Shown here: positions 1,040 through 61,335 of the stretch, piece after piece | Position numbering within the stretch: the first letter of the stretch is position 1 | Layout: the number at the start of each line of letters is the position of its first letter | Source of the DNA: Acidobacteriota bacterium | GTDB lineage: Bacteria > Acidobacteriota > UBA890 > WLXD01 | Assembly: GCA_965205505.1 (NCBI GenBank) | Contig: CBDBHB010000008.1 | Location: forward strand, 64,001 to 128,000 | Direction: 5' to 3' | DNA: 64,000 nucleotides | Translations under genes and position numbers: made by a program | Notes under the pieces: generated by a model | The model's database searches: none | Seen by the model: the letters and a program-made list of their open reading frames with translations, nothing else | Told to the model about the DNA's origin: nothing

Positions 1040-3369
1040 ATGAACCCGCTGTTGGCGCTTGCTCGCTGGCTCGACGTCCGGCCGCACCAGTATCGGACGT
1101 TCTCGGTATCGGCTTTGGGCGCTTTCTTGGTCATGTCGTTCAGTATCTCCGCGCGCTCCCTTCGCGAAGCCTTCTTCATCGACGAGTTTGCGGTCGAGTC
1201 GCTGCCGTACGTGATCGTTCTCACGGCGCTCGTCAGCCTACCCTCGGTCGGCGCGTTCAGTCGCCTGATGGCTCACCACGAGCCCGAGGCCGTCTACCAG
1301 AGGCTGATCTCGATGCTCATCGCGGGCCTTGTTGTGCTCTGGATTCTCAACTCGTTGGTAAGCGAACCCGGCCCCGTCGATGTGTCTCGTCCACCCGAAG
1401 TGTCCCCCCTGTTGGACGGTCTCAGTATAGTTGCGTTCTACGTATTCACGGCGCTGGGAACGCTGCTCCTCACCTCAGGGTTCTGGGTGGTTACCTCGGA
1501 GCGGTTCGCGCTGCGTGACGCCAAGCGCCTGTTCGGAATGATCGGTGCGGGTGGAACGTTGGGCGCCTTGCTCGCGGGCATCTCACTGGGCTCCCTGGGA
1601 CGGATTGTCGGCAACAGCGGGCTCGTGCTGGGCTTGATAGTCACGCTTGGCGCTCTGCTGCTGTTGCTTCGTTGGCTGCCAGAGCCCAGCGCCACTCGGC
1701 ACCGCGCGACGTCGACAGTCCGGCGGCAAGCGAAAGCTTGGCGCTAGTCGCGCGCAACCCACATCTGCGAAACATGGCGATGATCGTGGCGGTGGCCACC
1801 TTCGCGTCGGGCCTGATCGACTACCAGTTCAAGGAGGCTGCCGGCGCCGTTTATACCGACGATGCGGACCTGGCGGCGTTCTTCGGTACGTTCTACGGCA
1901 TCAGCGGCGTGGCGGCGTTGGCGATCCAGATGCTGGTGGCATCGCGTCTGCTCAGCATCGGCGGTATCAGCGTCAGCCTGGCGGTATTGCCGATCTTCCT
2001 CCTCACCGGCTCCGCGGCGCTGTTCTTTCTGCCTGGACTGATCACCGCTACCGTGGTCCGCGGCGCCGACAACACGCTGCGGAAATCGGTTCACAGATCG
2101 GTGTTGGAGTACCTCTACGTCCCCGTTCCCAGCGGCGAGCGGCGCCAAACGAAGACGTTTATCGACTCGTTCGTCGACAGCGCCGCCGAGGGCATCGCAG
2201 CGGTGGTGATCTTCGCCTGGGTGGTTTTCGCCGGGCTTCCGTCGCGCGGCCTCGCCATCGTCGTGGCCGTGTCCGCAGTGGCGTTCCTGGTGCTGGCAAA
2301 GAGCATGGGGGCAGAGTACTTCCGCACCCTGCTCGACAGACTCAAGGAGGGCCAGGACAGCATCGAGGACTCCCTTGTGCAGACCCAGTTCGCAGGCGGC
2401 GAGATGACAATGACGGTGACGCAGTTCGACCTCAAGGCGGCGTTGACCCAGACAGGCATGACGATGCCCCTCGCAGCGAGGTCGGAGTCGGAGCACCAGC
2501 CGGCGACAGCGCTGCCCGAGCGCGCCGCTACCTCCTTGGAGCGCATCATCGGCGGCGACCCGACGGTGATCTCGGCGACGCTCGACGACGCTGACGATTG
2601 GAGCGCCGCTCATGTAGAGGCGCTGATCCGACTTCTCGCCCGTGATGCCTTCTACCGACGAGCCTGTCGTATCCTGAGCAGCCTCGGCGAGGACGCCATC
2701 GAACCTCTGGCCGAGCTGCTGCTGGATCCGGCTGCCGATTTCGTCATCCGACGGCGCATTCCCCGCGTTCTCGCCGCGATGGAGCTGCCGCGTGCCCACG
2801 ACGCGCTTCTCGACGGGTTGGCGAGCGACCGCTTCGAGGTGCGTTACCGAAGCGGCGTAGCGCTGGCGCGTCGACGGAAGAACCAGCGCGTCGCCGCTGA
2901 ACACGGCGGCGCCGACCGAGTCTGGAGCGCGGTGCGCACCGAGGTGGGCCGGGATCGACCGATCTGGGAGCTACAACGGCTTCTAGGTGATCGACCCGCC
3001 CAGGACGATTTCGTCAGCGATCGGGTATACGGTCGCGGGGAGCTTTCGCTCGAGCACACGTTCCGGCTTCTGTCGTTGGTCCTCGAGCCCGACCCGATCC
3101 GTACGGCATTTCACGGCATCGTCCTGGACGACGACAAGCTCAAGAGCATCTCGCTGGAGTACTTGGAGGTGCTCCCGCCAGACATTCGCACACGCCTATG
3201 GCCCTTCATCGGCGATCTCAGCGAGCACCAGCGGCGCGTCAGCGCGCGGGGCATGGATGCGGTTGTTGCCGCTCTACTGCGTACCGGCTCCACACTCTTC
3301 GGGGACGACACGGCGCGGGATCAGCTACGGCAGGCGCTCGAGGCGGACGATTCGATCGATGACTTCTAG
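1040..3369 (+). CDS. Npt1/Npt2 (TLC ATP/ADP-translocase-like) MFS transporter fused to HEAT-like repeats; frameshifted near 1690-1740
   Basis: ORF 1040-1747 has TM helices and FWVVTSERFALRDAKRLFGMIGAGGTLG. ORF 1672-3369 continues with LIDYQFK, RKSVHRSVLEYLYVPVP...KTFID, then a HEAT-like region (FVIRRRIPRVL, RFEVRYRSG). The halves are colinear parts of one protein. Confidence 0.75.
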
Positions 3370-4032
3370 CAGGGTTGATCTCTACTTCGACTTCGTCTCT
3401 CCATATTCGTATCTGTTGCTGGCACAGGCTGCCGAGTTCGGCGAACACCATGGCGTGGAATGGCGGCTACAGCCAGTCGTGTATGGTGCCCTGGTCAACC
3501 ACACTGGCCTGGTCGGCCCGATTGAGGTTGAAGTCAAGCGACAGTACACCTTTGCCGACATACGACGTAGCGCAGCGCTACTCGGGATTCCGTTGGTCGG
3601 CCCTCCGACGCACCCCTTTCGATCATCGAGGCGTTGCGAGCCGTGTGCCTGTATGCCGCGGACCCGCATTGCCTGGACTTGTCGACTGCCTTGGCCGACG
3701 CGTGGTGGGGTGCCGGCCGCGACCTCGCCGACCTCGGTGCGCTGGCAGACGTTGTTGCAGAAACCGGCCTCGACACCAGCAACCTGGCGGCGCGACTGTC
3801 CGCCACCGAGACGAAGAATCGGTTGCGAGAATCGACCTCACAAGCTATCGAGCGAGGCGTCTTCGGGGTGCCTACCTGTCGCCTCGGCGATGAGCTGTTC
3901 TGGGGCCATGATCGCCTACCGCACCTTGCCGCGCGGATCGCCGGTAAGATCCCGGACCCGCTCGCGGAACTCGAACAATTACTCGAGCGCCCGCGAGGCG
4001 CCGAACGCAGGCCCGGCAAGACGGGACGCTAG
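3359..4032 (+). CDS. 2-hydroxychromene-2-carboxylate isomerase / GST-kappa (DsbA-like) protein; frameshift near 3623
   Basis: MTSSRVDLYFDFVSPYSYL...KRQYTFADIRR...HPFRS, then the other frame continues IEALRAV...AIERGVFGVPT...ELFWGHDRL; one base appears to be missing. Confidence 0.8.
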
Positions 4033-4307
4033 TGCTCCTGATCATAAGTACGGTGACGTTTGCAGGAGCGAGATGCGGGCGAGATCAAGGAAGGGTGAGG
4101 AAGGCGATGCCTTAGCCATCCTCGACGAGCCCTGACGCCGAGATCGCCCGCCTATCGCTCCTGCCCTCCGGGTGGCCGCGGGACCGGCCACCTTGGGCGT
4201 CGCGGCGTCTCGACGATACACCCAGCATCGCCCTCGTCGCCGCTCCTACAATTCGCCCCGGTCGCGCGCGCCACAAACGTCACCGTACTTATGATCAGGA
4301 GCACTAG
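4029..4307. mobile_element. 279-bp MITE-like element (type A ends) with two inverted hairpin modules
   Basis: Perfect 34-bp inverted repeats CTAGTGCTCCTGATCATAAGTACGGTGACGTTTG at 4029-4062 and 4274-4307; no credible coding capacity; internal hairpins 4062-4164 and 4172-4274. Confidence 0.85.
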
Positions 4308-4351
4308 TGGCCTGTAACAGATGATCGTCGCTTATTGTGGCGAGCGCGATC
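4304..4351 (+). repeat. Truncated type C end of the same element family, sharing the CTAG of the preceding element
   Basis: TAGTGGCCTGTAACAGATGATCGTCGCTTATTGTGGCGAGCGCGATC matches 20198-20244 at 40/47 positions (manual alignment). Confidence 0.75.
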
Positions 4352-5141
4352 AGTCGCCGCGCGACACCGAGTCGATCAGTTCATCGAGCTCCTGCCGACG
4401 ACCGACGAGCTCCGCCAGTAGAGCTTCCTGGCGGCGCGTCAGCTCGTCGAAGATGACCTCGATCTGCAGCAACGGTCCACCCACGGCACGTTGCAACGCC
4501 TCCGCGTCCTTGGCATCGACCACGGCGCGCAATTTCTCGCTCAGGCGCGTGACCAGGGTAAGAGCCTCGACCACATGCTCGAGCGCTTCGCCCATACCCT
4601 GCCAGCGGTGCAGATCGTCGCTGCGCACCTCCGCCGCCGCTGCTCGCTGCTGATCCTGCGTCGTACGCAGCGCCTCGAGGCCCGCCTCGAGCTGCGCTGC
4701 CGCATGCTCTTGGACACGCTCGAGGGCCCCGCCGACCTCCTTACGCAGCGCCACGATGTCGCTTTGCAGATCGGCCAGCGCATGCTCGACCGTACCCTGG
4801 CGCTGGTCGAGCGTCGGCAGTAGATCGCCAATCAGCCAGTTGGCTAGCCAGCCTCGCAAGCCGGCGGACGGAAGCTCCCACCCTGCCCGTTCCGTGGGCC
4901 TCGCCGGCCTCGCAGTGGACGCCATCAGCGGCGCCTGCGCCGCACCTACTTTGTCTTCAGTGACGGGGGGATCGTCGGACGCATCTTCGGCCGACGCCAG
5001 CGCGAAGCGATCGAGCAGAGCGCGCAGGCTGTCGGCGCGAACCTCGAACCGGTGCATGCATTCCAGATACTCCGCCTCGACGGCGACACGCGCAGCCTCC
5101 AGGGCATCAAGCTTGGCGGCAACACGGGGCTCTTCAGCCAT
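4350..5141 (-). CDS. Hypothetical coiled-coil protein
   Basis: 263-aa ORF rich in A/E/L/R with long helical stretches; overlaps the stop of the upstream glycerate kinase gene. Confidence 0.7.
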   Translation of the reverse strand: MAEEPRVAAKLDALEAARVAVEAEYLECMHRFEVRADSLRALLDRFALASAEDASDDPPVTEDKVGAAQAPLMASTARPARPTERAGWELPSAGLRGWLANWLIGDLLPTLDQRQGTVEHALADLQSDIVALRKEVGGALERVQEHAAAQLEAGLEALRTTQDQQRAAAAEVRSDDLHRWQGMGEALEHVVEALTLVTRLSEKLRAVVDAKDAEALQRAVGGPLLQIEVIFDELTRRQEALLAELVGRRQELDELIDSVSRGD

Positions 5142-6516
5142 GCGATGGTGCTCCTACCAGAACGATCTGTAGATCCATCACGTTGGTCCTCGTAGGACCG
5201 GTACGAACGAGATCACCTAGCTCCTCGAAGAACGTATACGAGTCGTTGTCCAACAGGAAATCATCGGCATCCAACGCCCGCGTCCGCGCCCGATCGACGG
5301 TTCTACCATCAGCAAAGGCGCCGGCCGCATCGGTAGGGCCATCGGTGCCATCCGTGCCGACGGCAACGAAGGTCACCGCGTCGGTGCCCTCGAGATGTAT
5401 CGCCGCCGCCAGTGCAGCCTCCTGATTACGGCCGCCGCGCCCCGTTCCGCTCAACGTTACCGTGGTTTCGCCGCCCGCCAGCAAACAAATCGGCGCTCCG
5501 TCGGTGACGACGCATGCCGCACCGACAGCGGCCAGGCAACGTCCCACAGATCGTGCTTCCCCCTGTAGCGTCGCCGTCAGTACGAACGGCCGATAGCCGA
5601 GATCTGTGGCCTGGGCTACGGCTGCTGAGAGAGCCCGGGTATTGTCACCGACCACCACACTGCACGCGCGCTCGAAGACTGGCGAACCCGGTGCGGGCGT
5701 CTCCTGGATATCTCCACACGCGCCGCGGCTGAGGTGTTCGAGAACGGACGCCGGGAGGCGGTCACCGAGTCCGTAGCTCTCGACCACCGCGATGCAATCG
5801 GCAAAGCTCGTGGGATCGGGCACGGTGGGTCCGGAGCCGATCGCCGTGAGCTCGTTGCCGACCACGTCTGACAGCATCAGGGTCAGCAGCGCGGCCGGAT
5901 GGGCCACCTCGGCTAGCCGGCCGCCCTTTACCGCCGATAGGTGCTTGCGGATCGCGTTGACGCTATCGATCGGCGCCCCCGAGGCGAGCAGTGCTTCAGT
6001 GGTTCGCTGCAGTTGTTCGAGCCCGATTCCCGCCGCCGGTTGAACCATCAGCGCCGACGCCCCGCCCGAGACAAGGCACACGACCAGGTCGTCTTCGCCG
6101 GCGGCTGAGACCAGACGCAATAGCTCGGCAGTTGCCGTTAACCCGCGCATGTCGGGAACAGGATGGCTCGCCTCGTAGACGCGAATGTGCTGCAGTGGCA
6201 GCCTGTGCCCTTCCTTGGTAATCACCATTCCGTCGGCGATGCGCGACCCGAAAAGACGTTCCACCGCCGCCGCCATTGGCGCGGTGGCCTTGCCGGCGCC
6301 TACGACGAGCAGGCGGCCCCGCGGAAGGGCCGTCGAGCTGCTGCCAACACGCAGCAGCGAGCTTTCACCCTGCCGGCTGCCACACAACTGCAGCTGCTCG
6401 TCGACGATGCGCTCACCGTCCACCGAGGCAATCGCCGCACCGAGAATGGCGCGCGCGTGTGTCCGGTGACGGCGACAAGCTCTATGGATGCCGTCGTCGC
6501 TGCCGGCCGGAGTCAA
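5134..6516 (-). CDS. Glycerate 2-kinase (DUF4147/MOFRL family)
   Basis: VVGAGKA, ASHPVPD, LVSGGASAL, IRKHLSAVKGGRL, SDVVG...IGSGPT, GGETTV, GGRNQE, GTDGTDGPTDAAGA, TGPTRTNVMD. Confidence 0.92.
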   Translation of the reverse strand: MTPAGSDDGIHRACRRHRTHARAILGAAIASVDGERIVDEQLQLCGSRQGESSLLRVGSSSTALPRGRLLVVGAGKATAPMAAAVERLFGSRIADGMVITKEGHRLPLQHIRVYEASHPVPDMRGLTATAELLRLVSAAGEDDLVVCLVSGGASALMVQPAAGIGLEQLQRTTEALLASGAPIDSVNAIRKHLSAVKGGRLAEVAHPAALLTLMLSDVVGNELTAIGSGPTVPDPTSFADCIAVVESYGLGDRLPASVLEHLSRGACGDIQETPAPGSPVFERACSVVVGDNTRALSAAVAQATDLGYRPFVLTATLQGEARSVGRCLAAVGAACVVTDGAPICLLAGGETTVTLSGTGRGGRNQEAALAAAIHLEGTDAVTFVAVGTDGTDGPTDAAGAFADGRTVDRARTRALDADDFLLDNDSYTFFEELGDLVRTGPTRTNVMDLQIVLVGAPSHG

Positions 6517-17424: not shown

Positions 17425-18765
17425 TTAATCCGCGTTCCTGCGCACAACGGCGGTCAGGCGCTCGACCGCCGACATGGCCTCTGTTCCCGATACCAACGCC
17501 AGCAGATCGAAGGTGCCGTCGTCATCGGGCAACAAGATGCGCAACCCGACCACGGCTTGCACGGGTCGATAGAGAAGGTGCTCCGGTGGAGGATCGTCGA
17601 GCGCCGGCCGCGGAGCATCGGCCGCTGCTCCGATCAGCTCGAGCACTCGGTAGCAGGCCTCCACCAACATGCTTCGGCGTACCTGCATCTGAGGGAAGAA
17701 GTCATTGTTCTGGTAAACGTCGAGGACACCCCAGGACACCATGCGCTGCACGAATGGGGTCGACCAGCGTGCTCCGACATCCGCAACGATCACGCCGCGG
17801 CGCTCTTCGGCGCGACCCTCGAGCATTTGCAGATTGATGGCGAGCAGTGCCGCGAGCTCCTCGCGGGTAATCACTGACTTGGTCGCCAGTTCTCGGTATT
17901 CAGCCGGCAGTGAATCCCGTTCGTACAGGTCACGAGCTTCTCGCGCCAGATCCGCAATACGCGGATCGTCGGGGAGCGCATCGGCCAGCCGTTGGAAAAC
18001 ATTGTTCGAGTCGGCGTACCGTTGCGCGCTGCGATAGAGCATGCCGAGTCGTCCCAGGATCAACGGGCCGTCGCCGGTGCGTCGGCGGGCATCGCTGAGG
18101 ACCCGAATCGCCGCCTCGATATCGCCGCGCTCTTCCCGTAGCGCGGCGATGCGCAGGTACGGCCCCTCCAGCTCCGGGGCAGCAGCAATGGCCTCCTCAT
18201 AGGCAGCTACGGCAACCTCGGCATCGCCGCTGTTGGCGGCCATCTCGGCACGCATGAGCAGTGGTCCCACGTCACCAAGCCTGAGCTGTCGCAGCTCCAG
18301 AACGGCACGCGTCAACCCAGCATCCGCCTCCAGCGCAGTTTCGAACCAGCCTCGCGCCAGTTCTGGGCGCTGCTGCAGCACCGCGACCAGACCCATCCCG
18401 TATGCCGCCTCGGCCAACGGTTGTCCCGACCCGAGCGCCAGTCCAAAGGCATCGCGCGCAGCCGCAAGATTTCCCTGTCGCAACGCCGAAAATCCGGCCA
18501 CTGTCCTGCCGATCGAGCTCGCCGCTTCTTCGGAAGTGAGTCCCGCCAGCGCGCCGCCCGGCGTTACATCGCGCACGGCGTCCCATGCCTCGCTCAGCGA
18601 GACGGAGACAGCGGCAGGAGGCGGCGGTACTCGTGCCGGATCGAGCACGACGGCGGTGCTCGGCCGCAACTCTGGCGCCACCGTCGTGGCGGCACAGCCG
18701 CCCAGCACGACGAGCGCCCAAATAGCCACAGCTCTAAATCGCCTACCTGCGTTCATCGCGTCCAT
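17425..18765 (-). CDS. TPR-repeat lipoprotein with C-terminal SLH-like domains
   Basis: Lipobox LVVLGGC, TPR-like helices, C-terminal ITREELAA...ADVGARWSTPFV...GVL...FFP and VSGTEA; start uncertain. Confidence 0.72.
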   Translation of the reverse strand: MDAMNAGRRFRAVAIWALVVLGGCAATTVAPELRPSTAVVLDPARVPPPPAAVSVSLSEAWDAVRDVTPGGALAGLTSEEAASSIGRTVAGFSALRQGNLAAARDAFGLALGSGQPLAEAAYGMGLVAVLQQRPELARGWFETALEADAGLTRAVLELRQLRLGDVGPLLMRAEMAANSGDAEVAVAAYEEAIAAAPELEGPYLRIAALREERGDIEAAIRVLSDARRRTGDGPLILGRLGMLYRSAQRYADSNNVFQRLADALPDDPRIADLAREARDLYERDSLPAEYRELATKSVITREELAALLAINLQMLEGRAEERRGVIVADVGARWSTPFVQRMVSWGVLDVYQNNDFFPQMQVRRSMLVEACYRVLELIGAAADAPRPALDDPPPEHLLYRPVQAVVGLRILLPDDDGTFDLLALVSGTEAMSAVERLTAVVRRNAD

Positions 18766-20196: not shown

Positions 20197-20366
20197 TTAG
20201 TGTCCTGTAACAGAGGTTCGTTGCATATTGTGGCGCGCGCGACCGAGGCGGATCCAAGGAGGCCCGACGACGGCGATGCCATGCGTATCGCAGAGGCGGG
20301 CCGACGCCGGAGGCGGCCGGTCGCGCTCCCCACAAACGTCACCGTACTTATGATCAGGAGCACTAG
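20197..20366 (+). mobile_element. 170-bp monomeric member of the CTAG element family (type C end, one hairpin module, type A end)
   Basis: 20330-20371 is identical over 42 nt to 4271-4312; the left end matches 4305-4351; the internal hairpin 20230-20333 matches the module consensus. Confidence 0.82.
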
Positions 20367-24683: not shown

Positions 24684-24783
24684 GTCGCGGCCTCGATACC
24701 GACGCCGCCCGACGATGACTGTAGCAACGCCGCGCCAACAGGGTCAACGATACGCGGTACCCGCGGGCGAGCGCCGGCGGCCT

Positions 24784-28367: not shown

Positions 28368-29123
28368 CTATTCAGCCACCTCGCGCGACTGCTTCAAAAG
28401 CGGCTCCAGCAGCATCCGCGCCGCCACTTGCTCGGCGCGCTTCTTGGTACTGCCTTGGCCTACGGCCCGCTGATCGTCGCCAGCAGTCACCTGGACGCGG
28501 AACGTCTTCGCGTGATCGGGGCCCGCCTCATCGACAACCTCATACGAGGGCAGCGGTAGGCCGGCAGCCTGCACATGCTCTTGGAGCGCCGACTTGAAGT
28601 CACGAATAGGGGCTGAGTGATCAGCGGCCGGGCTGATAAGCGGTTCGACCCGCGCGAGGATGAACTCGCTAGCGCAATCGAGTCCGCCGTCCAGGTAAAG
28701 CGCAGCGATCAGCGCTTCGAACGTATTCGCCAGGATCGAGCTCTTGGTGCGACCCGCGGTCTTCTCTTCGCCGCGGCCCAGGAAAACGCACTGCCCCAGC
28801 CAGAGATCATCCGCAAGCTTGGCGAGCGTCTCCGCCGATACCAGGAACGACTTGAGCTTCGACATCTGTCCTTCGTTGAGCGACGGATGTCGACGACACA
28901 GGAGGTCGCTGACGATCAGACCCAACACCGCGTCGCCAAGGAACTCGAGGACCTCGTTGTCCTCCGCACCGCTGCCCCGTTCGTTGGCATACGAGCGGTG
29001 TGTCAGTGCGCGAACCAGCAGCGCACGGTCGTCGAAGCTGTAGCCGACCCGCTGCTCTAGGGGAGCGAGCGCGCCGCCGTCAGGCTCGGACTGCGAATCA
29101 CCGATCCTGCGATCAGTTTGCAC
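28368..29123 (-). CDS. rnc: Ribonuclease III
   Basis: ALTHRS, NEVLEFLGDAVL, FEALIAALYLD, dsRBD FKSALQE...GPDH; start set at GTG 29123. Confidence 0.95.
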   Translation of the reverse strand: MQTDRRIGDSQSEPDGGALAPLEQRVGYSFDDRALLVRALTHRSYANERGSGAEDNEVLEFLGDAVLGLIVSDLLCRRHPSLNEGQMSKLKSFLVSAETLAKLADDLWLGQCVFLGRGEEKTAGRTKSSILANTFEALIAALYLDGGLDCASEFILARVEPLISPAADHSAPIRDFKSALQEHVQAAGLPLPSYEVVDEAGPDHAKTFRVQVTAGDDQRAVGQGSTKKRAEQVAARMLLEPLLKQSREVAE

Positions 29124-29820
29124 CTGTCGGCAACTCCATCGACGCGCGAATCGCGACCGCCGCCGCCACCGGGTCGTCGGCCTGCAGAATTGGGCGCCCG
29201 ACAACCAGATAGTCGGCCCCGGCTACCACCGCCGCCGACGGGGTGGCCACGCGGACCTGGTCGTGCGCATCAGCGCCGGCCGGGCGAATCCCCGGCGTAA
29301 CGAGAAGAAACTCCGGCCCCCACCGGGCGCGGATTGCAGCAGCTTCTCGAACCGAGGTTACCACACCGTCACAGCCGCTATCGTGGGCCAGCTGGCAGCG
29401 TCGTTCGACTACCGAGGCCGGGGCGTCGTGGACGCCGACGGTCGGCAGATCCTCGGCCGAGAGGCTGGTGAGCAGGGTAACGCCCAGGAGTCGCGGGATG
29501 GGCTGATTCGAGCGCGCCGCCACCGCCGCTTCGAGCATCTTGCGCCCGCCACTGGTGTGCAGCGTAAACAACTCCACCTCGAGCTCAGCGGCGGACCGCA
29601 CGGCACCGGCAGCGGTCGCCGGAATGTCGCATATCTTGAGGTCGAGGAAGATCCCCCATCCCATCGACATGAGCTCACGCACCAGGCCTGGTCCCTGAGC
29701 GATAAACAGCTGAAGGCCGACCTTGAGGACGTCGGCGTGCCCTTGCAGTACTTCCGCAACCTGGAGGGCGCGTTCGGCGGTGGGTACATCGAGTGCGACG
29801 ATCAGTCGCGGCCGGCTCAA
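29113..29820 (-). CDS. pyrF: Orotidine-5'-phosphate decarboxylase
   Basis: LIVALD, KVG, FLDLKICDIP, VTLLTS, TPGIRP, DQVR, VVGRPI. Confidence 0.95.
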   Translation of the reverse strand: MSRPRLIVALDVPTAERALQVAEVLQGHADVLKVGLQLFIAQGPGLVRELMSMGWGIFLDLKICDIPATAAGAVRSAAELEVELFTLHTSGGRKMLEAAVAARSNQPIPRLLGVTLLTSLSAEDLPTVGVHDAPASVVERRCQLAHDSGCDGVVTSVREAAAIRARWGPEFLLVTPGIRPAGADAHDQVRVATPSAAVVAGADYLVVGRPILQADDPVAAAVAIRASMELPTGAN

Positions 29821-33838: not shown

Positions 33839-35099
33839 GGGCGGCCGCCTGATCGACCCGACGAATGGCGTAGATACGGTCGGCGACTTGCTCGTCGTCG
33901 ACGGCGTCATCGAGAAGACGGGAACCAAGATCGACGCTACCGCCGCCGAGACGATCGAGTGCGGTGGCATGATTGTCGCTCCCGGTTTCGTTGACATGCA
34001 CGTTCACCTTCGAGAGCCGGGCTTCGAGCACAAGGAGACGATCGCCACGGGGACCATGGCAGCCGCTGCCGGCGGTTTTACCGCTGTCGCCTGCATGCCC
34101 AACACCAGGCCGGTGAACGACCACCGCGCGGTGACGGAGTTCATCGTCGAGCGGGCCAACCTCGAGGGGCACGTCCGGGTCCATCCGATCGGAGCAGTGA
34201 GCATCGATCAAGCCGGCGAGGCGTTGGCGGAGATTGGCGAACTAGTCGCAGCGGGCTGCGTGGCCGTCTCCGACGACGGGTATCCGGTGGCCACCGCACA
34301 GCTCATGCGCAAGGCGCTCGAGTACAGCCGTATGTTCGATATCCCGGTGATCGATCACTGTGAGGAGCGCTCGATGACCACCCGGTCTGTGATGCATGAG
34401 GGTGCGGTTTCTACCGCCCTGGGGATGCGTGGCTGGCCGGCGGCCGCCGAAGAGATCATCGTCGCCCGCGATCTATTGCTGGCCGAGGCGACCGGTGGAC
34501 GGCTGCACCTGGCACATCTTTCTACAGCCGGATCCATGCGACTCGTGCGCGACGCCAAGGAACGCGGCGTCGACGTAACGTGCGAGGTAATGACGCACCA
34601 TTTCTCGCTCACCGACGAGGCCGTGCGTGGCTTCGACACCAACACCAAGATGAACCCGCCGCTGCGCGCCGAGTCGGACCGTCAGGCGCTGCTCGAGGCG
34701 ATCGGCAACGGCACGGTCGACGCCATCGCCACCGACCACGCTCCGCATCATCGAGACGAAAAGCTGCTGGAATACGACCAGGCGCCGTTTGGCATCGTCG
34801 GCCTCGAGACTGCGATCCCACTCGCTTGCACTCACCTGCTGCGTACCGATGTCGTCGACGTCGCCCGGCTCGTGGAGCTCATGTCGGTCAACCCGAGCAG
34901 GATTCTCGGAATCGACGGCGGGACCCTGACCACCGGGGCGCCAGCCCACCTCACCGTCATCGATCCAGAACGCCAAGCAACGATCGACGCTTCGGCGTTT
35001 CACAGCAAGTCCCGAAACACCCCCTTCGATGAACAGACCCTCTACGGCTGGCCCATGCTGACCGTCGTCGACGGACAGATTGCCTGGCGTCGAACGTGA
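33819..35099 (+). CDS. pyrC: Dihydroorotase
   Basis: [47 protein letters not shown]. Confidence 0.95.
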
Positions 35100-35674
35100 G
35101 CCCAGCGCCCAACGTCCGCGCCCTGTTGCTCGACAGCGAAGCCCTGCTGGAGGGTCACTTCGCGCTCTCCTCGGGCCGGCATTCGGACCGCTATCTACAA
35201 TGTGCTCGCGCCCTTCAGCATCCGGACGTCGCCGAGCGACTCGGAGCGGAGCTCGCCCAGCTCTGCCGCGACGAGCTGACAGAGGCCCCCGAAGTGGTTG
35301 TGTCTCCCGCCCTCGGTGGTCTGATCATCGGACATGAAGTGGGGCGAGCCCTGGGGCTGCGAGCGTGCTTCACGGAGCGCGTCGAAGGTGTTATGGAGCT
35401 GCGGCGTGGGTTCGCACTGACCCCTGGCGAGCGTGTGTTGATGGTGGAGGATGTCGTTACGACCGGCCTCAGCAGTCGTGAAACGCTGCAGGTAATCCGC
35501 CAGCACGGCGGCCATCCGGTCGGTGCCGCCTGCATCGCCAATCGCCTCGGGGCCGCGGAGGTCGACGAGCTGCCGCTGCTGGCTCTCTTGATGCTCGATG
35601 CGCCGGTTTGGGAGCCGCATGAGTGTCCGTCATGTGCCGCCGGGAGCACGGCGATCAAGCCAGGGAGTCGCTAG
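35096..35674 (+). CDS. pyrE: Orotate phosphoribosyltransferase
   Basis: LLEGHFALSSGRHS..YLQC, PALGG, LRRGF, VEDVVTTG, CPSC...KPGSR. Confidence 0.93.
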   Translation: MSPAPNVRALLLDSEALLEGHFALSSGRHSDRYLQCARALQHPDVAERLGAELAQLCRDELTEAPEVVVSPALGGLIIGHEVGRALGLRACFTERVEGVMELRRGFALTPGERVLMVEDVVTTGLSSRETLQVIRQHGGHPVGAACIANRLGAAEVDELPLLALLMLDAPVWEPHECPSCAAGSTAIKPGSR

Positions 35675-35949
35675 CAGGCCGTGGTGGAAGTGTGGCGGGT
35701 CTGGTTACGGCGAGTTGGGGCCAGATGCAAGGCGGCCTGACACTGGCGATGCCCTAGCCATCGTCGAGGAAGGCCAACGCCGCAAATGGCCCCAAATCGC
35801 CGTAACCCTTCGGGCGACAGGGGGTTGCGCACGTATGCTGCGTCGTTCCTCGTCAACGATGGGGTAACCATCGCCTCCTCCTCCCTCCTTGCCTCCGCCT
35901 CGCAAGACCCTGTCGCCAGGCCCGCCACACTTCCACCACGGCCTGCTAG
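35671..35949. mobile_element. 279-bp MITE-like element (type B ends) with two inverted hairpin modules
   Basis: 34-bp inverted repeats CTAGCAGGCCGTGGTGGAAGTGTGGCGGG(T/C)CTGG at 35671-35704 and 35916-35949 (1 mismatch); hairpins 35703-35807 and 35813-35917 flank CCCTTCGGG. Confidence 0.85.
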
Positions 35950-35950
35950 G

Positions 35951-37705
35951 TCAGTGACGCCCGAGTTGGCGTTCGATTGAGCGGTGATCGAGCCGCAGCA
36001 TGATCGGACGCCCGTGTGGACAGCGGGTCGGCGACTCACACTCTCCAAGCTGAGAAATCAGGCTCGCCATGACCTCCCGTGTCAGTGGCTGATTCGCCTT
36101 GACAGCCGCGTGACACGCGATCGAAGCGGCAACCTGATTCTGGATCTGTTCAGCCGCTTCGCCGCCACGCTCATCGGCCAACGACGCGAGCAGGGCGCGC
36201 AGCGTCGGCGCACCGCGCCGCGCCCCCAACACCTCCGGAACAGTGCGCAGTGTCCAGGTTTGTCCCCCGAACGGCTCGATCTCGAAACCGAACGTGGCCA
36301 GCAGCTCTTGGTGTTGCTCGGCCGCCGCCACCTCTACGGCAGTCAGCTCCACGGTCTCGGGTACCAGCAATCCTTGCACCGGGACGCGGCGACGTCGACG
36401 TTGCTCCAGCACCTGCTCGTAGAGGACCCGCTCGTGCGCCACGTGCTGATCGATGATCAGCAGCCCGTCGTCGTCGACGGCGAGGATGTACGTGTTGGCG
36501 TACTGCGCGATCGCCTGGACGGCGCCGGGGGTGCCCCCAATCGGTGCTGCGACCTGGCTTTCGCGGATATCCCCTCCGATCCCCGAGCCACCGATCGACA
36601 CCCAGTCGCGCAGGGGCAGGCTGGGCGCCCACGGCGCGCGCACTGGGATTCCCGAGGTACCGTCAGGGGCATCTCGAACCACCCCGTCGGACATCGGCTG
36701 TGGCCATGCGCTCGGTGGCGGCAGCCGACTCGCGAGCGACGTCGCCACGGCTCGCCGCAGCACCGCGAAGACGCGGCCCGGCTCGACGAAGCGCACCTCG
36801 GCCTTGCGCGGATGCACGTTCACGTCTACCTCGGCGGGATCGAGTGCAAGAAACAACACCGCCACCGGGAACCGCCGGCGTTCCAGCAGCGAATCGAAGC
36901 CCGACACGACCGCATGTGCCAGGCGACCATCGCTGACCACCCTGCCGTTCACGAACAGGTGGATGTGGCGCCGGTTGGATCGCGTATGCTCCGGGCTCGT
37001 CACGCCTCCGACCACACGTATTTCGCTGCCGCCCTCGACCAGCACCCAGCACTCGGCGACCGCCGCGCCGAGCACCTGATGGATGCGTTCGTCGAGCGCC
37101 GCGACCGGAGGAGCCACGAGGCGCTCGCGGCCGTCTACGGAGAGCGTCAGACCGATGTCCGGCCGCAACAACGCGAAGTCTTCGACCACCGCAGCAACGT
37201 GCCCGGTCTCGGTGGCGTCGGTACGCAGGTGCTTTAGCCGCGCCGGCGTGTTGTAGAAGAGTTCGTGCACGCGCAGACGCGTGCCGCGCGGGCCTACGGA
37301 CGTGCGTACGCTCGGCCTTTCACGCTCTCCGACGCGAATCTCGGCACCAACCCCCTCGCCTGTGCCGGTATGCATCTCGACGCGAGCCACCGCGGCAATG
37401 CTGGCGAGAGCCTCGCCGCGGAAGCCGAGCGTGCGTATGTCGTCGAGATCCTCGACCGTCGCGATCTTGCTCGTCGCGTGTTGCCGGAACGCCAAGACCG
37501 CATCCTCGGACGTCATCCCGTGGCCGTCGTCGTCAACTTCAATCAGCCGCCGGCCGCCGGCCTCGATACGAACATCGATGCGGGAGGCACCCGCATCGAG
37601 AGCGTTCTCGATCAACTCCTTGACGACAGAGGCGGGGCGCTCGACGACCTCCCCTGCCGCGATGCGATCGATGACGGCACCATCGAGCATGTGAATGGCG
37701 TTCAT
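35951..37705 (-). CDS. mutL: DNA mismatch repair endonuclease MutL
   Basis: IAAGEVVERPASVVKELIEN, HATSK, GFRGEAL, DVNVHP, DQHVAHE, ACH, CPHGRP. Confidence 0.96.
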   Translation of the reverse strand: MNAIHMLDGAVIDRIAAGEVVERPASVVKELIENALDAGASRIDVRIEAGGRRLIEVDDDGHGMTSEDAVLAFRQHATSKIATVEDLDDIRTLGFRGEALASIAAVARVEMHTGTGEGVGAEIRVGERERPSVRTSVGPRGTRLRVHELFYNTPARLKHLRTDATETGHVAAVVEDFALLRPDIGLTLSVDGRERLVAPPVAALDERIHQVLGAAVAECWVLVEGGSEIRVVGGVTSPEHTRSNRRHIHLFVNGRVVSDGRLAHAVVSGFDSLLERRRFPVAVLFLALDPAEVDVNVHPRKAEVRFVEPGRVFAVLRRAVATSLASRLPPPSAWPQPMSDGVVRDAPDGTSGIPVRAPWAPSLPLRDWVSIGGSGIGGDIRESQVAAPIGGTPGAVQAIAQYANTYILAVDDDGLLIIDQHVAHERVLYEQVLEQRRRRRVPVQGLLVPETVELTAVEVAAAEQHQELLATFGFEIEPFGGQTWTLRTVPEVLGARRGAPTLRALLASLADERGGEAAEQIQNQVAASIACHAAVKANQPLTREVMASLISQLGECESPTRCPHGRPIMLRLDHRSIERQLGRH

Positions 37706-57160: not shown

Positions 57161-59391
57161 TGTCCTCCGGTCTCCGTTGGTGAGCGATCGGCGTTGCCGG
57201 GATCGGCGACAACCACCACGACCTTCCCGGCGCTGCGATTCAGCGCCGTGTCAGTCACCTGAACGACCACCGTATGCTCACCGGGAGTAAGGTCTCCGAT
57301 GCTGAATTCAATAGCCTCGATCGCCGAATCGGCAGCACCATCGGCGGGTAATACTGTATGCCAAACTGCACCGTCCACAGAATACCGGAGCTGCCGCAGA
57401 AGCGATGTGGCATCGTGAACGCGGCCGGAAACGCGCACCTCGTCACCATCGATAGTAGCGTTCAACGCATCGAACACTGGCGCCGTGTTGTCGACGGTGA
57501 AGGCTCTTGACGTCGCGCTCCCCGACTTGGCCAAAAGCTGCGGGTTGGACGGGCGATCGCTCGCGGATACGCGCACTGCATACCTGCCGTCGGCCAGGCG
57601 GGCCGTATCGAAGGTGAACTGCGTTGTGTCGAGCTGCTCGGCGAGCGGTTTCCAGGTCGTTTCCTCCTCGCCGCGGAACTCGAGGGTGTATTCGAGCCCG
57701 TCGCCGTTGGGGTCGCTCGCTTCCCATGTGAAGGTGCGCAAGCCGTGCATGTAAAGCGGCCGGCCGAGGAACGGGCGGGCGGCGCTGACGGAGGTCGACG
57801 AATCCATGCTACGAAGCGCCTCGGCCACGGACGGTGGGATCTGCGCGAAGGGCAGGCCATCCTCGAATGCGGCGGTCTGGCGATAGATCACTCCGGCCGG
57901 ATGAACTTGAAGCTCGTCGAGCCTAGGGGGGAGATTACCGGGAACGTAGGCGATCTCGACGCGATACAACGTCGGAGTCCGCCCGCCGTCGGAAGTCACC
58001 AACTCGGCGCGCCACTGCAGGAAGCGCGCCGCCGGCGAGGCAACCCCACTGGCGTTCGTATCGCCCGGCGGCCTCGACCACGCACTCCACGTATCATCAG
58101 GCGTGCCGGTATTGCCGCTGCGCGTGTAGAGCCGCACCGCCGTTCCATCCGGAGTCTCGGCCCGCCAACGGAGCGTTCCCCACGTGGAGGTCGTGCCGGT
58201 GTCCTTGACCTGCGAAAGGTACTCTCCCTGGGCGCGATAGGACGCTTCCAGACAGTGTACACGCCCGATGTTGCTGGTCGCGGCCAACGTCACCGAGCTG
58301 TTTACTCGTACCAACTCCACGACCTGTTCCGCGTCGAGCTGGCTCAGCAACGTCGCGCTTCGATCGGCGCCGACGCGGTAGACGTGCCCACCGGGCCCCG
58401 TGCCCGCAAGCACACCGCCCGGTGCCGTCGCGAGCGCGTAAACACCCTCGCTAGCGCTCTCCCAAACCGTCTGTGCGAACCCGTCCGCATCAAGTCGATA
58501 CACCGCTCCCGATGCCTTGGCCGCCCCGTCTGCGGGAGCAGACAGCGACACACGCCCGCCCAACGGCGCCTCTGCGTCCGAGCCTGCGTTGCCGTCGGCC
58601 GTTCCGAACGCACCGACCCACACCGATCCATCCGCCAGTAATATGTCGGTAATTTCGGGCAACGGGGCATCGTAGAGAACGAACACCTCGCCGGACTCCG
58701 AGATGCGATACACGTAGCCGTTGCCGTCGGTGCCGGCGACAACCCCACCGGCAGCGTCAACCGCGACCGTCGTTACGTTGGGCTCCGCTGTCTCGTACAA
58801 ACGCTCTAGACGGCCGTCCTCGATGCGGACGATGCTTGCGGCGCCGCCGGTAGCGGCGACCAAGCGGCCCCGCGGATCAACGGCCAGATCCCAAACATAC
58901 GCCACGTCGAGCTCGGCCCAGGCCTCCAGCTCGTCGCCCGCGTAGTCGTCGGGTACCCGATATATGGAGCCACGCGGTCCTGCAGCCACGAACAGATGTC
59001 CGTCGGGGGCCCAAGCAATGGCCTGAACGAGTCCCTCGCCAGGGACGGTGAAGAACACCTCGGCCTCGGCATCTGGCCGCACTCGCGTCACACTCCCCTG
59101 TTCGCCCGCGGCGACGAAAACGCTGCCCGCGCCATCGGTCGCAACTCCCCAGATACGCGGCCGATCAGCGTCGAACACTGTGGCGATCGATGGCGCCAGG
59201 CGGAGAGCACCGTCCGCCGCAATCGAAACCCCCAGCGGCTCGCCGGCCGAGAAGTCTTTGGCGCCAGCCTGCAACCACACAGCCGGGCCGCTACCCAGCC
59301 CCGCGCCGGCGATCACCAGTGCAGCCGCAGCAACCCCAGTGGCAGCCCTGCTATGCAAGCTTCCTCCATGTCGGGGCCAGGCACCAAGCAC
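57142..59391 (-). CDS. Secreted beta-propeller plus FN3-like domain protein
   Basis: Signal-like N-terminus, repeated GxxGxVYR/LYD blades, TRSGNTGTPDDTWSAWS, WEASDPNGDGLEY, DGRY.VRV.ASD, VDNTAP. Confidence 0.72.
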   Translation of the reverse strand: MLGAWPRHGGSLHSRAATGVAAAALVIAGAGLGSGPAVWLQAGAKDFSAGEPLGVSIAADGALRLAPSIATVFDADRPRIWGVATDGAGSVFVAAGEQGSVTRVRPDAEAEVFFTVPGEGLVQAIAWAPDGHLFVAAGPRGSIYRVPDDYAGDELEAWAELDVAYVWDLAVDPRGRLVAATGGAASIVRIEDGRLERLYETAEPNVTTVAVDAAGGVVAGTDGNGYVYRISESGEVFVLYDAPLPEITDILLADGSVWVGAFGTADGNAGSDAEAPLGGRVSLSAPADGAAKASGAVYRLDADGFAQTVWESASEGVYALATAPGGVLAGTGPGGHVYRVGADRSATLLSQLDAEQVVELVRVNSSVTLAATSNIGRVHCLEASYRAQGEYLSQVKDTGTTSTWGTLRWRAETPDGTAVRLYTRSGNTGTPDDTWSAWSRPPGDTNASGVASPAARFLQWRAELVTSDGGRTPTLYRVEIAYVPGNLPPRLDELQVHPAGVIYRQTAAFEDGLPFAQIPPSVAEALRSMDSSTSVSAARPFLGRPLYMHGLRTFTWEASDPNGDGLEYTLEFRGEEETTWKPLAEQLDTTQFTFDTARLADGRYAVRVSASDRPSNPQLLAKSGSATSRAFTVDNTAPVFDALNATIDGDEVRVSGRVHDATSLLRQLRYSVDGAVWHTVLPADGAADSAIEAIEFSIGDLTPGEHTVVVQVTDTALNRSAGKVVVVVADPGNADRSPTETGGQWRSRK

Positions 59392-59396
59392 GACGC

Positions 59397-61238
59397 CTAG
59401 CGATTCCGTACTTGCACTTCGATCTGGTGGGAGCCGCTGACCACGTAGTCAACTGGCTGCACGATCTCGAGGATCAGCGCACGATCAAGCCGAACCACGT
59501 CGCCCTTTGCCTGCTCGGAGCTCAACACTTGCAGGACCGAGGGAGGCAACGCCGGCAGCGTCTCTCCGTTCAGCAGCGCTCCCGTGGCGGCGCGCGTCGC
59601 CCGCATGTACAGCCGATCACTGCGGCGGAGATTGTTCAACAACCGAATCACTTGAGCGAGATTCCGCGGTCGGTTGGAACTCTGAATCGCGGCCGCCTCC
59701 CGCTGCTCGATCGACGCGGCATCGCCGACCACGAGCGTCACCGGGCCGGGCGGCGTGCCCGGCGGCACGGTGAACTTCAGCTGCTCGAGAACCTCCGGCC
59801 CCCGAAATGGCTTCAGCGCCACCGTCACCGTCACCGTCTCGCCCGGTCTGACGCTCGCCCGGTCGTACCAAATGCGGCTGATCGTCGCGCTTCTGCGATC
59901 GTGCCGCAGGTTGATGGACAGCTCGATCCCCTGCACCTCGACCGGCTCAAACGCGTTGTCGTAGAGCGCCCCGAATAGACCGGCCAGGGCCGACGACAGC
60001 GACAAGATCGCCTGGTTGGGAGACGAGAACAGGTTGTCGAAACGCACCGGATCGAGCCCGTCACCAAGTTCGATCTGTGCGTCGACCTCAATGGAGCCCT
60101 CGCCGAAGGTACGGTCGAGGCTCTGAATACCGCTGACCAGGCCGAAGAACAGATACAGCGGTGTGATGAGCCGGTCGGCGACGATCTCGAAATCAAGGCG
60201 CTCCGTTCTTCCCGCCGCTTCGATCCGCGTACGCACCGGGACCATCCGCGGCTGTGCGCCGATGATCCCCAGGATCGCGGCTTGCCGGTCCTGCCGAACG
60301 GCACCCACCACCTGATCTCCGGCAACCGCGAGCTTGGAGGAAGCTTGCGAGCTACTGAGCACAGTCACGACCTGCGCCGCGACCATCGGAAAATCGACGT
60401 TGCCCCCGTGCAGGAACGGGTGTCCAAAAGCGAGGAGCCGATCTCCATCGCGATAGGTAACCGTCCCGGAAGCGGTGATGTTGATGTCCCCTCGGACGAG
60501 TTGAACGGCAACCATGCCGCCGGGCTCGAGATTGGCCTCGATCTCCATCGAACCGGCGGTTCCGCCAAGCGTGGGCGTCCACCCGAGCAAATCAAACAGC
60601 GGAGCGAGGCGCCCGACGAGCGTCGGCGCCAATCCCCCGATGGCGATCGGTGTCGAGATCGGCCGTACCCCTTGCATGGCACCGTGTAGCGGCAGCAGCG
60701 CCTCGGCACTGCCCGCGCCGGTCAACAGATCGGCCGCAGCCTGCAAGACAAGCTCCGGCGAGACATCCACTGCCACCGACGTCCCCGGGCCGCCGGATTC
60801 GAGCGCCGACACCTGCAACATTTCTTCGATGGACACGATCCCGGCGACCGCCTCGTGCCCGAAGTTCACCAGCCGATAGGCCACGGCGCCCAGGAGGCGG
60901 CCGTCGATGTACACCGGACTGCCGCTCATCCCAGCCAGCACGCCAGCGTGCTCGAGACCCAGCCCGGTGAGCCGCGCGACGATCAGATCGTGCTTCGGGA
61001 ACACGTTGTGCAGCACACCGAGCACCTCGGCGCTGAAGCTCTCGGGCTCCGTACCACGCACGACCGTATACCCGGTGCCCACCATGCCAACGCGGACCTC
61101 CGAGAAACTCATCAGCTCGGGTGTCGTCGCCGCGCTTGCCTGCGCTCGCGGCGCCGATCCCAGCGCCGGGCCGCCAGCCACGACGGCGAGCGCAAGGGCC
61201 CCGAGAAATGGTCTGAGAAGATGGGCAGATCGGCTCAT
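59397..61238 (-). CDS. SpoIVB-type peptidase S55 domain protein
   Basis: Signal peptide, GYTVVRGT...F..EVLGV, GVLAGMSGSPVYIDGRLLGAVAY, GTVT...AFGHPF, QDR. Confidence 0.85.
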   Translation of the reverse strand: MSRSAHLLRPFLGALALAVVAGGPALGSAPRAQASAATTPELMSFSEVRVGMVGTGYTVVRGTEPESFSAEVLGVLHNVFPKHDLIVARLTGLGLEHAGVLAGMSGSPVYIDGRLLGAVAYRLVNFGHEAVAGIVSIEEMLQVSALESGGPGTSVAVDVSPELVLQAAADLLTGAGSAEALLPLHGAMQGVRPISTPIAIGGLAPTLVGRLAPLFDLLGWTPTLGGTAGSMEIEANLEPGGMVAVQLVRGDINITASGTVTYRDGDRLLAFGHPFLHGGNVDFPMVAAQVVTVLSSSQASSKLAVAGDQVVGAVRQDRQAAILGIIGAQPRMVPVRTRIEAAGRTERLDFEIVADRLITPLYLFFGLVSGIQSLDRTFGEGSIEVDAQIELGDGLDPVRFDNLFSSPNQAILSLSSALAGLFGALYDNAFEPVEVQGIELSINLRHDRRSATISRIWYDRASVRPGETVTVTVALKPFRGPEVLEQLKFTVPPGTPPGPVTLVVGDAASIEQREAAAIQSSNRPRNLAQVIRLLNNLRRSDRLYMRATRAATGALLNGETLPALPPSVLQVLSSEQAKGDVVRLDRALILEIVQPVDYVVSGSHQIEVQVRNR

Positions 61239-61335
61239 GGTGCTCAGAGAAAAGACGCGCCTAGTTTCATGCTAGCAGGGGCCGCTCGCGGCGCACAACG
61301 CGGCCACATTGAGCTGGTTGCGTGCGTCTCGCGAC

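Follow-up and report, generated by a model that had tools for sequence, protein, structure and literature searches.

The window analysed here, the whole stretch of 64,000 nt of Acidobacteriota DNA with a G+C content of 64.7%, holds two full two-module elements of 279 bp each, A at 4029..4307 and B at 35671..35949 (no strand assigned to either), both of which start and finish with CTAG. Element A is composed of end repeats at 4029-4062 and 4274-4307, a left module at 4061-4165 (plus strand), a right module at 4171-4274 (minus strand) and a central mini-hairpin at 4164-4172; in element B the corresponding parts are the end repeats 35671-35704 and 35916-35949, the left module 35703-35807 (plus strand), the right module 35813-35917 (minus strand) and the central mini-hairpin 35806-35814. 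The module scores under the covariance model described below are 99.8 and 74.0 bits in A and 111.3 and 85.2 bits in B. The first 34 nt form terminal inverted repeats that match at 34/34 positions in A (1.00) and 33/34 in B (0.97), and at offset +135 both elements carry a 9-nt mini-hairpin, CCCTCCGGG from 4164 in A and CCCTTCGGG from 35806 in B, so that the CTAG boundaries, the 279-bp length, the 34-bp repeats and the hairpin position given in a preliminary description of this DNA are all confirmed. The left CTAG of element A holds the TAG stop of an upstream DsbA-like ORF (3634-4032), the left CTAG of element B holds that of pyrE (35096-35674), and mutL (35951-37705, minus strand) ends 1 nt to the right of element B.

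The preliminary description counted too few elements, overlooking a third element and a remnant. The third element, at 20197..20366 (no strand assigned), is a one-module chimera of 170 bp with an A2-like left end (28/33 positions shared with the 4305-4337 remnant), a module at 20230-20331 (plus strand, 70.0 bits) and a type-A right end (29/29). It sits inside an operon, between tolR/exbD-like and tolQ/exbB-like genes, and its left end lies 3 nt from the tolR-like ATG (20193-20191, minus strand), so that the end repeat supplies the sequence where the ribosome-binding site is expected. The remnant, at 4304..4353 (plus strand), consists of a solo end of a third type, A2 (CTAGTGGCCTGTAACAGATGATCG...), and the beginning of a module stem; it has its CTAG in common with the right end of element A and is missing at the orthologous locus L015. 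The window also contains an RNase III gene (28371-29222, minus strand; TIGR02191, E 3e-73). The tetranucleotide CTAG is rare throughout, with 55 occurrences observed and 208 expected from base composition, an under-representation of about 3.8-fold.

As the preliminary description held, the end sequences of A and B differ: only 15 of 34 positions are alike, and four of these are the CTAG. The interiors (positions 35-245) have an ungapped identity of 0.50, to be compared with a mean of 0.279 (sd 0.031, maximum 0.403) over 20,000 random window segments, and are related beyond chance. Both elements fold far more stably than their shuffled versions (A, -171.8 kcal/mol, z -12.0; B, -182.3 kcal/mol, z -13.3). 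A scan of the window with the module covariance model returned exactly five strong matches (E 2e-14 or better), two in A, two in B and one at 20230-20331; these five sit within the model's 19 training sequences, so that recovering them is circular and the informative part is the lack of any further strong match in the window. Each element holds two head-to-head modules, as stated earlier. The weak matches reached 39.2, 25.2, 15.3 and 13.4 bits; three of them are the same modules read on the opposite strand and the fourth lies at 18051-18143 (E 0.86). Apart from the four cores within A and B and the one at 20272, which belongs to the third element, the remaining single-core motif matches in the window fall under the calibrated model cut-off (E<=1) and were treated as chance; two of them that were read, at 24709 and 38662, are ordinary sequence.

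All four half-elements of A and B carry the core GGCGATG-N8-ATCNTYGA, on which a palindromic two-core pattern with a free gap of 70-100 nt was built and used for a genome scan. The pattern was found at no fewer than 44 loci, every one of them within four Acidobacteriota MAG assemblies. The core-to-core span is 130-133 nt in all of these loci, and on most sides a CTAG stands 74 nt outside the cores, a distance that the pattern did not impose; the best match over a 30-nt end was 25-30/30 in 42 of the 44 measured copies, the exceptions being L023 (23) and L027 (19). Elements A and B belong to a MITE-like family present in at least four other Acidobacteriota genomes. One of the assemblies, CAXWPH01, has at least 35 copies on its contigs, beside unrelated housekeeping genes, and a search of a plasmid collection (blastn 'distant', each element as query) gave no match. 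The scan pattern selects two-module copies with intact cores, the cores being conserved by construction in the 44 loci; the only elements that escape this bias are the A2 copy of L025, the chimera in the window, the second copy of L033 and the deletion derivatives.

After boundary refinement the set of full copies numbers 46, made up of 42 loci, the two window copies and two extra copies from end matching, with L028 and L040, cut by contig ends, left out. Their lengths are 279 bp in 34 copies, 280 in five, 278 in three, 283 in two, and 277 and 273 in one each, and the shared 279 bp of the two window elements is thus no coincidence. Independently of the pattern, two full copies (278 and 279 bp) and one L025 copy (~3655) with a decayed right end were found, as were shorter derivatives of 209 bp (L017), 194 bp (L004) and, in the window chimera, 170 bp. 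The first of these (L017, 451-659) is an internal-deletion derivative broken at a repeated GGCGATGG core; the second (L004, 3928-4121), also an internal-deletion derivative, has ends of yet another B-like variant, in which each change at one end has its match at the other. Two solo ends were considered as possible ends of an autonomous element and rejected: that of L025 (3656) belongs to a further non-coding copy, decayed at its right end, and that of L017 (2693) is a remnant beside a sigma-factor gene. The centre of the element varies, being CCCTTCGGG in 34 of the 46 copies, CCCTTTGGG in six and other sequences in six; the UNCG hairpin, present at +135 in both window elements as previously described, does not hold as a feature of the family.

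When 16 copies from all lineages were folded together with RNAalifold, a three-way junction was obtained, formed by a 34-bp end stem, two inverted hairpin modules of ~105 nt and the central 9-nt mini-hairpin, and 55 of its 92 pairs show double-sided changes. When 19 modules, taken from the two halves of nine full copies and from the chimera, were aligned, double changes were seen in 19 of 29 pairs, and 88.8% of the cells are paired, against 68.9% in shuffles (0/500 as high), controls that overstate significance for related sequences, and against 30-50% with slid partners, which keep the relatedness. The apical hairpin GGCGATG-N7/8-CATCGTCGA (helix 5; GGCGATG / CATCGTC) never covaries and keeps its sequence, one position being a G:T in 17/19 modules; its core is also present in the A2 copy of L025 and in the window chimera, neither of which was chosen by the scan pattern. 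The internal-loop motifs AAGG and AACGCC are likewise conserved across modules, and among 38 B copies the substitutions per column amount to 0.80 at paired and 2.17 at unpaired positions. The apical hairpin looks like a sequence-specific site carried on structurally maintained stems.

Such covariation might also be a by-product of palindrome homogenisation, that is, of templated correction within hairpins, with the interior conserved by descent only. Every covarying helix is in fact a DNA inverted repeat, compensatory changes in a palindrome can arise by templated hairpin repair without selection, and the copies are related by descent, which is what inflates the shuffle comparison. This account, however, has to face a length held at 278-283 bp across lineages that are 30-50% diverged, the conservation of the unpaired AAGG, the apical hairpin and AACGCC as well, and the fall in pairing when partners are slid with relatedness kept; we consider it rather unlikely. 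The protein-coding reading of the element was rejected, as judged from the alignment, in which the only frame of type B with a Shine-Dalgarno run and an ATG is stopped after 25 codons in the B' copies. In the window (35853-35895, minus strand), as in every type-B copy, that frame starts where a strong Shine-Dalgarno-like run on the right module's purine-rich strand is followed by an ATG, and it extends for ~66 codons to the terminal TAG; being broken by a stop in B', it is probably no gene, though gene callers will be drawn to it. The ORFs listed within A and B are short and, as read from the sequences, the elements have no conserved ORF.

Five lineages can be recognised by end type. Type A comprises the window copy and L024; type A2, the copy at 216-493 of L025 and several remnants; type B, the majority of copies, mainly those of CAXWPH01; type B', the copies of DASWHK01, whose ends are near those of B and whose interior has diverged; and type C, that of OZ244217.1, with 283 bp. 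A single genome can carry several types: A, B and A2 remnants occur together in the window, B and A2 in CAXWPH01, and A and B in CBDAMQ01. Inside a lineage the interior is less well conserved than the ends: the window A copy and that of L024 are identical at 68/68 end positions (1.00), with modules at 0.88-0.90, and finding no difference in 68 positions at 11% divergence has a probability of ~6e-4; B and B', in turn, share 0.91 of their ends and 0.60-0.74 of their modules. The end sequence is thus under selection, and the earlier suggestion that geometry matters more than end sequence finds no support within lineages. Between lineages, instead, the ends drop to chance level (0.24-0.45), with the modules at 0.45-0.71, which upholds the proposal of a conserved structured interior common to elements with unrelated ends. 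Ends that are conserved within lineages and unrelated between them point to replacement as blocks, and the chimera at 20197-20366, with its A2-like left end, single module and type-A right end, is consistent with recombination inside homologous modules. Furthermore, within B the left module is further from the right one (~51%) than either B module is from its counterpart in C or B' (0.59-0.74), so that the two-module element must be older than these lineages; the same comparison rules out an origin by independent deletions of different parent elements.

The preliminary description took the elements to be non-autonomous and mobile and proposed a search for empty sites, which was carried out and proved positive. 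The loci L007 and L015 are orthologous to window stretches at ~88-92% identity. L007 matches 57490-59395 and 59397-61301 at ~91% identity and bears a 279-bp type-B copy where the window has a single CTAG, the empty target site 59397..59400 (no strand assigned), in which the ORF 59400-61271 (minus strand) has its TAG stop. In this presence/absence polymorphism the one CTAG of the window corresponds to a CTAG on both sides of the L007 copy, that is, to a target duplication of 2 to 4 bp, and the family is mobile between closely related genomes. L015 matches 2123-4032 and 4343-6279 and holds a type-B copy where the window has A, at the same CTAG and hence at the stop of the same upstream gene. Considering the window A copy, the A2 remnant that abuts it and the type-B copy of L015, the CTAG of element A has been struck at least three times. 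Two copies, in L026 and the second of L033, are nested insertions: their flanks (...GGCGATGCCCTAG; L026 ~2205-2290, L033 ~3225-3246) are the loop CTAG of another type-B copy's core hairpin, and the family is consequently a target for itself. Relative to the empty window site, L007 has eight extra bases (CTAGTGGC; region 1919-1930) ahead of its type-B copy, and A2-type end fragments abut the B copies of L009 (on the left), L037 (on the right), L006 and L034; these extra bases and fragments are either scars of excision or what is left of A2 copies that had entered the same CTAG before.

The association with stop codons seen for A and B extends to the family. The terminal TAG closes a long ORF (>=100 codons) in 26/46 copies with GC3 >=0.70 and in 28/46 with GC3 >=0.68, compared with 27/182 and 33/182 of the other CTAG sites in the same DNA (Fisher p ~3e-8), and at the strictest setting for TAG as ORF stop the counts are 20/46 and 30/182. 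Insertion leaves a CTAG at each end and regenerates the stop, so that copies on TAG stops are tolerated and survive; a TA within the rare CTAG of a GC-rich genome thus offers a harmless insertion route, which puts many copies on TAG stops.

As regards the moving enzyme, the boundary tetranucleotide over 92 ends has C in 85, T in 90, A in 91 and G in 89, and no target consensus extends beyond CTAG in these ends. Where the outer C or G deviates it mostly does so at one end only, as in L039 (TTAG..CTAG), L016 (ATAG..CTAG) and L035 (CTAG..CTAA), and this independent variation at the two ends favours a duplication of TA. IS630-family elements duplicate TA on insertion, and IS630 is reported to prefer the TA within 5'-CTAG-3' (PMC2170065, with the titles by Tenzen and by Ohtsubo cited there). 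No transposase domain was detected among 67 long window ORFs (NCBIfam, E<=1e-10), in agreement with the preliminary description, nor was a transposase found among 132 ORFs of at least 200 codons from the 44 loci (Pfam), and a cognate IS630-family gene between matching ends was not encountered in the 64-kb window and ~176 kb of loci. Directly beside a type-B copy, L013 has an ORF with an IstB_IS21-like ATPase domain (2232-3077, plus strand; E 8e-12), the only mobile-element-like match in the 132 ORFs, with no IS21 transposase adjoining it. The IS630 assignment is drawn from the target site. The preliminary description had thought of two transposase superfamilies, IS630-type for A and IS5/IS1182-type for B; these are not indicated, and the CTAG boundary and geometry common to all end types point to enzymes of a single kind whose specificity for the ends has diverged. 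We infer that a transposase of IS630/Tc1-mariner type, acting in trans, moves the elements, and the mechanism of movement is probably ordinary.

The explanation that we favour, and regard as likely though well short of settled, is that A and B are copies of a miniature, non-coding, cut-and-paste MITE family of Acidobacteriota moved in trans by IS630/Tc1-mariner-type DDE transposases. According to this model, insertion at CTAG would duplicate the TA within it; the transposases would bind the 34-bp ends, with one specificity for each end type (A, A2, B/B' and C); and end types would be swapped as blocks through recombination in the homologous modules, the A2/A chimera at 20197-20366 being a putative example. 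The conserved module would be required for propagation: its apical hairpin could be bound, as an inner site additional to the ends, by the transposase or by a host factor, and the covarying stems could keep the two ends together as a foldback. A standard DDE MITE requires only its ends; the MITE model alone leaves the strong constraint on the interior unexplained. A different emphasis, to which we give a rather small chance, is that the ~105-nt module, and not the inverted ends, is the persistent selected unit, gaining new sets of ends by recombination as a cargo that changes vehicles. If so, the module, combining structure and sequence in an apical hairpin of conserved sequence set on covarying stems, would be read by some protein or as a single strand, would persist by gaining ends again and again, and would ride whichever transposase is active in the genome.

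The elements could be of this same non-autonomous kind and yet be moved by another DDE family, one that targets CTAG with a duplication of 3-4 bp. Subgroups of the IS5 family, with their YTAR/TNA targets, are the candidates, and CTAG does stand at both ends of nearly all copies; L005, with TTAG at both ends, fits a 4-bp duplication, and the comparison of empty and filled sites accommodates 2 bp and 4 bp alike. The deviating ends, however, are usually unlike each other and, as read from the listing of ends, call for ~3 extra mutations under the TA model and ~6 under the CTAG model; no target-site data for the IS427 group were found in the literature searched. This enzyme choice appears improbable, and the duplication of TA by an IS630/Tc1-mariner-type enzyme is retained in the preferred model.

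We give little credit to a REPIN/BIME-like origin, in which a Y1/HUH (RAYT-like) enzyme would recognise the modules and move a hairpin repeat in single-stranded form, the left CTAG belonging to the target and the right one to the element, with no duplication. The inverted hairpin modules, their conservation at the level of structure, the sequence-conserved apical hairpin and the slower change of paired than unpaired columns are all in keeping with such an origin, and the single CTAG at the empty site also fits insertion beside a target tetranucleotide. Against this stand the perfect 34-bp inverted ends, which keep their sequence within lineages, as is typical where double-stranded ends are bound; the ends themselves, which consist of CTAG followed by lineage-specific sequence with no GTAG or CGTC tag; the size of the elements, about three times that of a REPIN, with palindromic units of ~105 nt; the equal variation of both boundary tetranucleotides; and the 240 kb of window and loci, among whose ORFs no HUH gene was found.

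A functional structured RNA kept by the host, for example a 3'-UTR stabiliser or a processing site, with the inverted ends serving only as a closing stem, seems similarly improbable. The folds are very stable and covary, the elements lie straight after stop codons and are in this way co-transcribed, the long perfect stems of co-transcribed copies would be natural RNase III substrates, and a gene for this enzyme is present in the window. Among B copies, which are not independent, G:T mismatches exceed A:C (48 vs 27, p=0.02), an excess located mostly in the ends (27 vs 10) rather than in the interior (21 vs 17). Relative to the incoming gene neither orientation prevails (11 vs 13-15), an argument against an RNA role tied to one strand; conservation does not extend to the UNCG loop, and presence/absence polymorphism and nested copies show selfish spread. 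No Rfam family matches either element: at the gathering threshold the window gives only three tRNAs, and a permissive search with both elements gives sub-threshold miRNA-precursor-like matches only (best 33.7 bits, threshold 168). The structured cargo of the preliminary description has been retained as a structured interior, its RNA nature being unproven and a strand-specific role being opposed by the orientation counts. The MITE model with a constrained interior remains the one that we prefer.

Considered as a MITE family, these elements offer a natural case in which the interior is under stronger long-term constraint than the ends, and the block-swapped ends, together with the chimera, allow what a miniature element needs beyond its ends to be tested. 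The role of the conserved module is the interesting part of the family. In the annotation of Acidobacteriota MAGs the 279-bp repeats account for spurious small ORFs and for breaks between contigs, and they flag hot spots where insertions of different element types recur.

Several known repeats resemble the family in part. The Correia elements of Neisseria are inverted repeats located close to gene ends at TA targets; they are co-transcribed, RNase III can cleave their long stems, and end variants exist. They measure ~100-150 bp, are without a two-module junction, and have end variants that are related to each other. The elements described here are like them in their inverted-repeat nature, in the TA targets near gene ends and in the existence of end variants, and differ in the two-module junction and in having end variants that are unrelated. 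Nearest in kind are the bacterial MITEs derived from IS630/Tc1-mariner elements, with which the family has target and architecture in common; RUP of pneumococcus and Nezha of cyanobacteria are among them. REPINs and BIMEs are inverted doublets of hairpin-forming repeats, a feature shared with our elements, and behave as a replicating unit whose structure is maintained (PMC3116915). GTAG or CGTC are the defining tags of REPs (PMC3733652), and, unlike REPs, which have 20-40 bp, these tags and a RAYT partner, the present family has no tags, 34-bp ends and modules of ~105 nt. The bcr1 repeat of the Bacillus cereus group also comes close: it is a MITE-like repeat with a cruciform-like structure, and compensatory changes maintain its fold as they do here; bcr1 is, however, ~155 bp long with 5-bp direct repeats, and the review passage on it reports no CTAG targeting or exchange of end types (PMC3184786). 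In the literature searched, which included text passages of a prokaryote-wide MITE census that lists MITEEc1 as an IS630-type MITE (PMC11602168), no earlier description of the 279-bp family was found, and the elements are apparently a real, mobile and undescribed MITE family. Their unusual traits are the fixed geometry, the covarying junction, the turnover of ends and the landing on stop codons. Like the MITEs derived from IS630/Tc1-mariner elements, they are short and non-coding, have terminal inverted repeats and a TA-containing target, and occur in many copies that are polymorphic between relatives. Unlike IS630-type MITEs, they have no autonomous partner identified, their interior is a conserved three-way junction with covarying stems, their lineages combine a common interior with unrelated ends, and even deep lineages keep the same fixed length of 279 bp.
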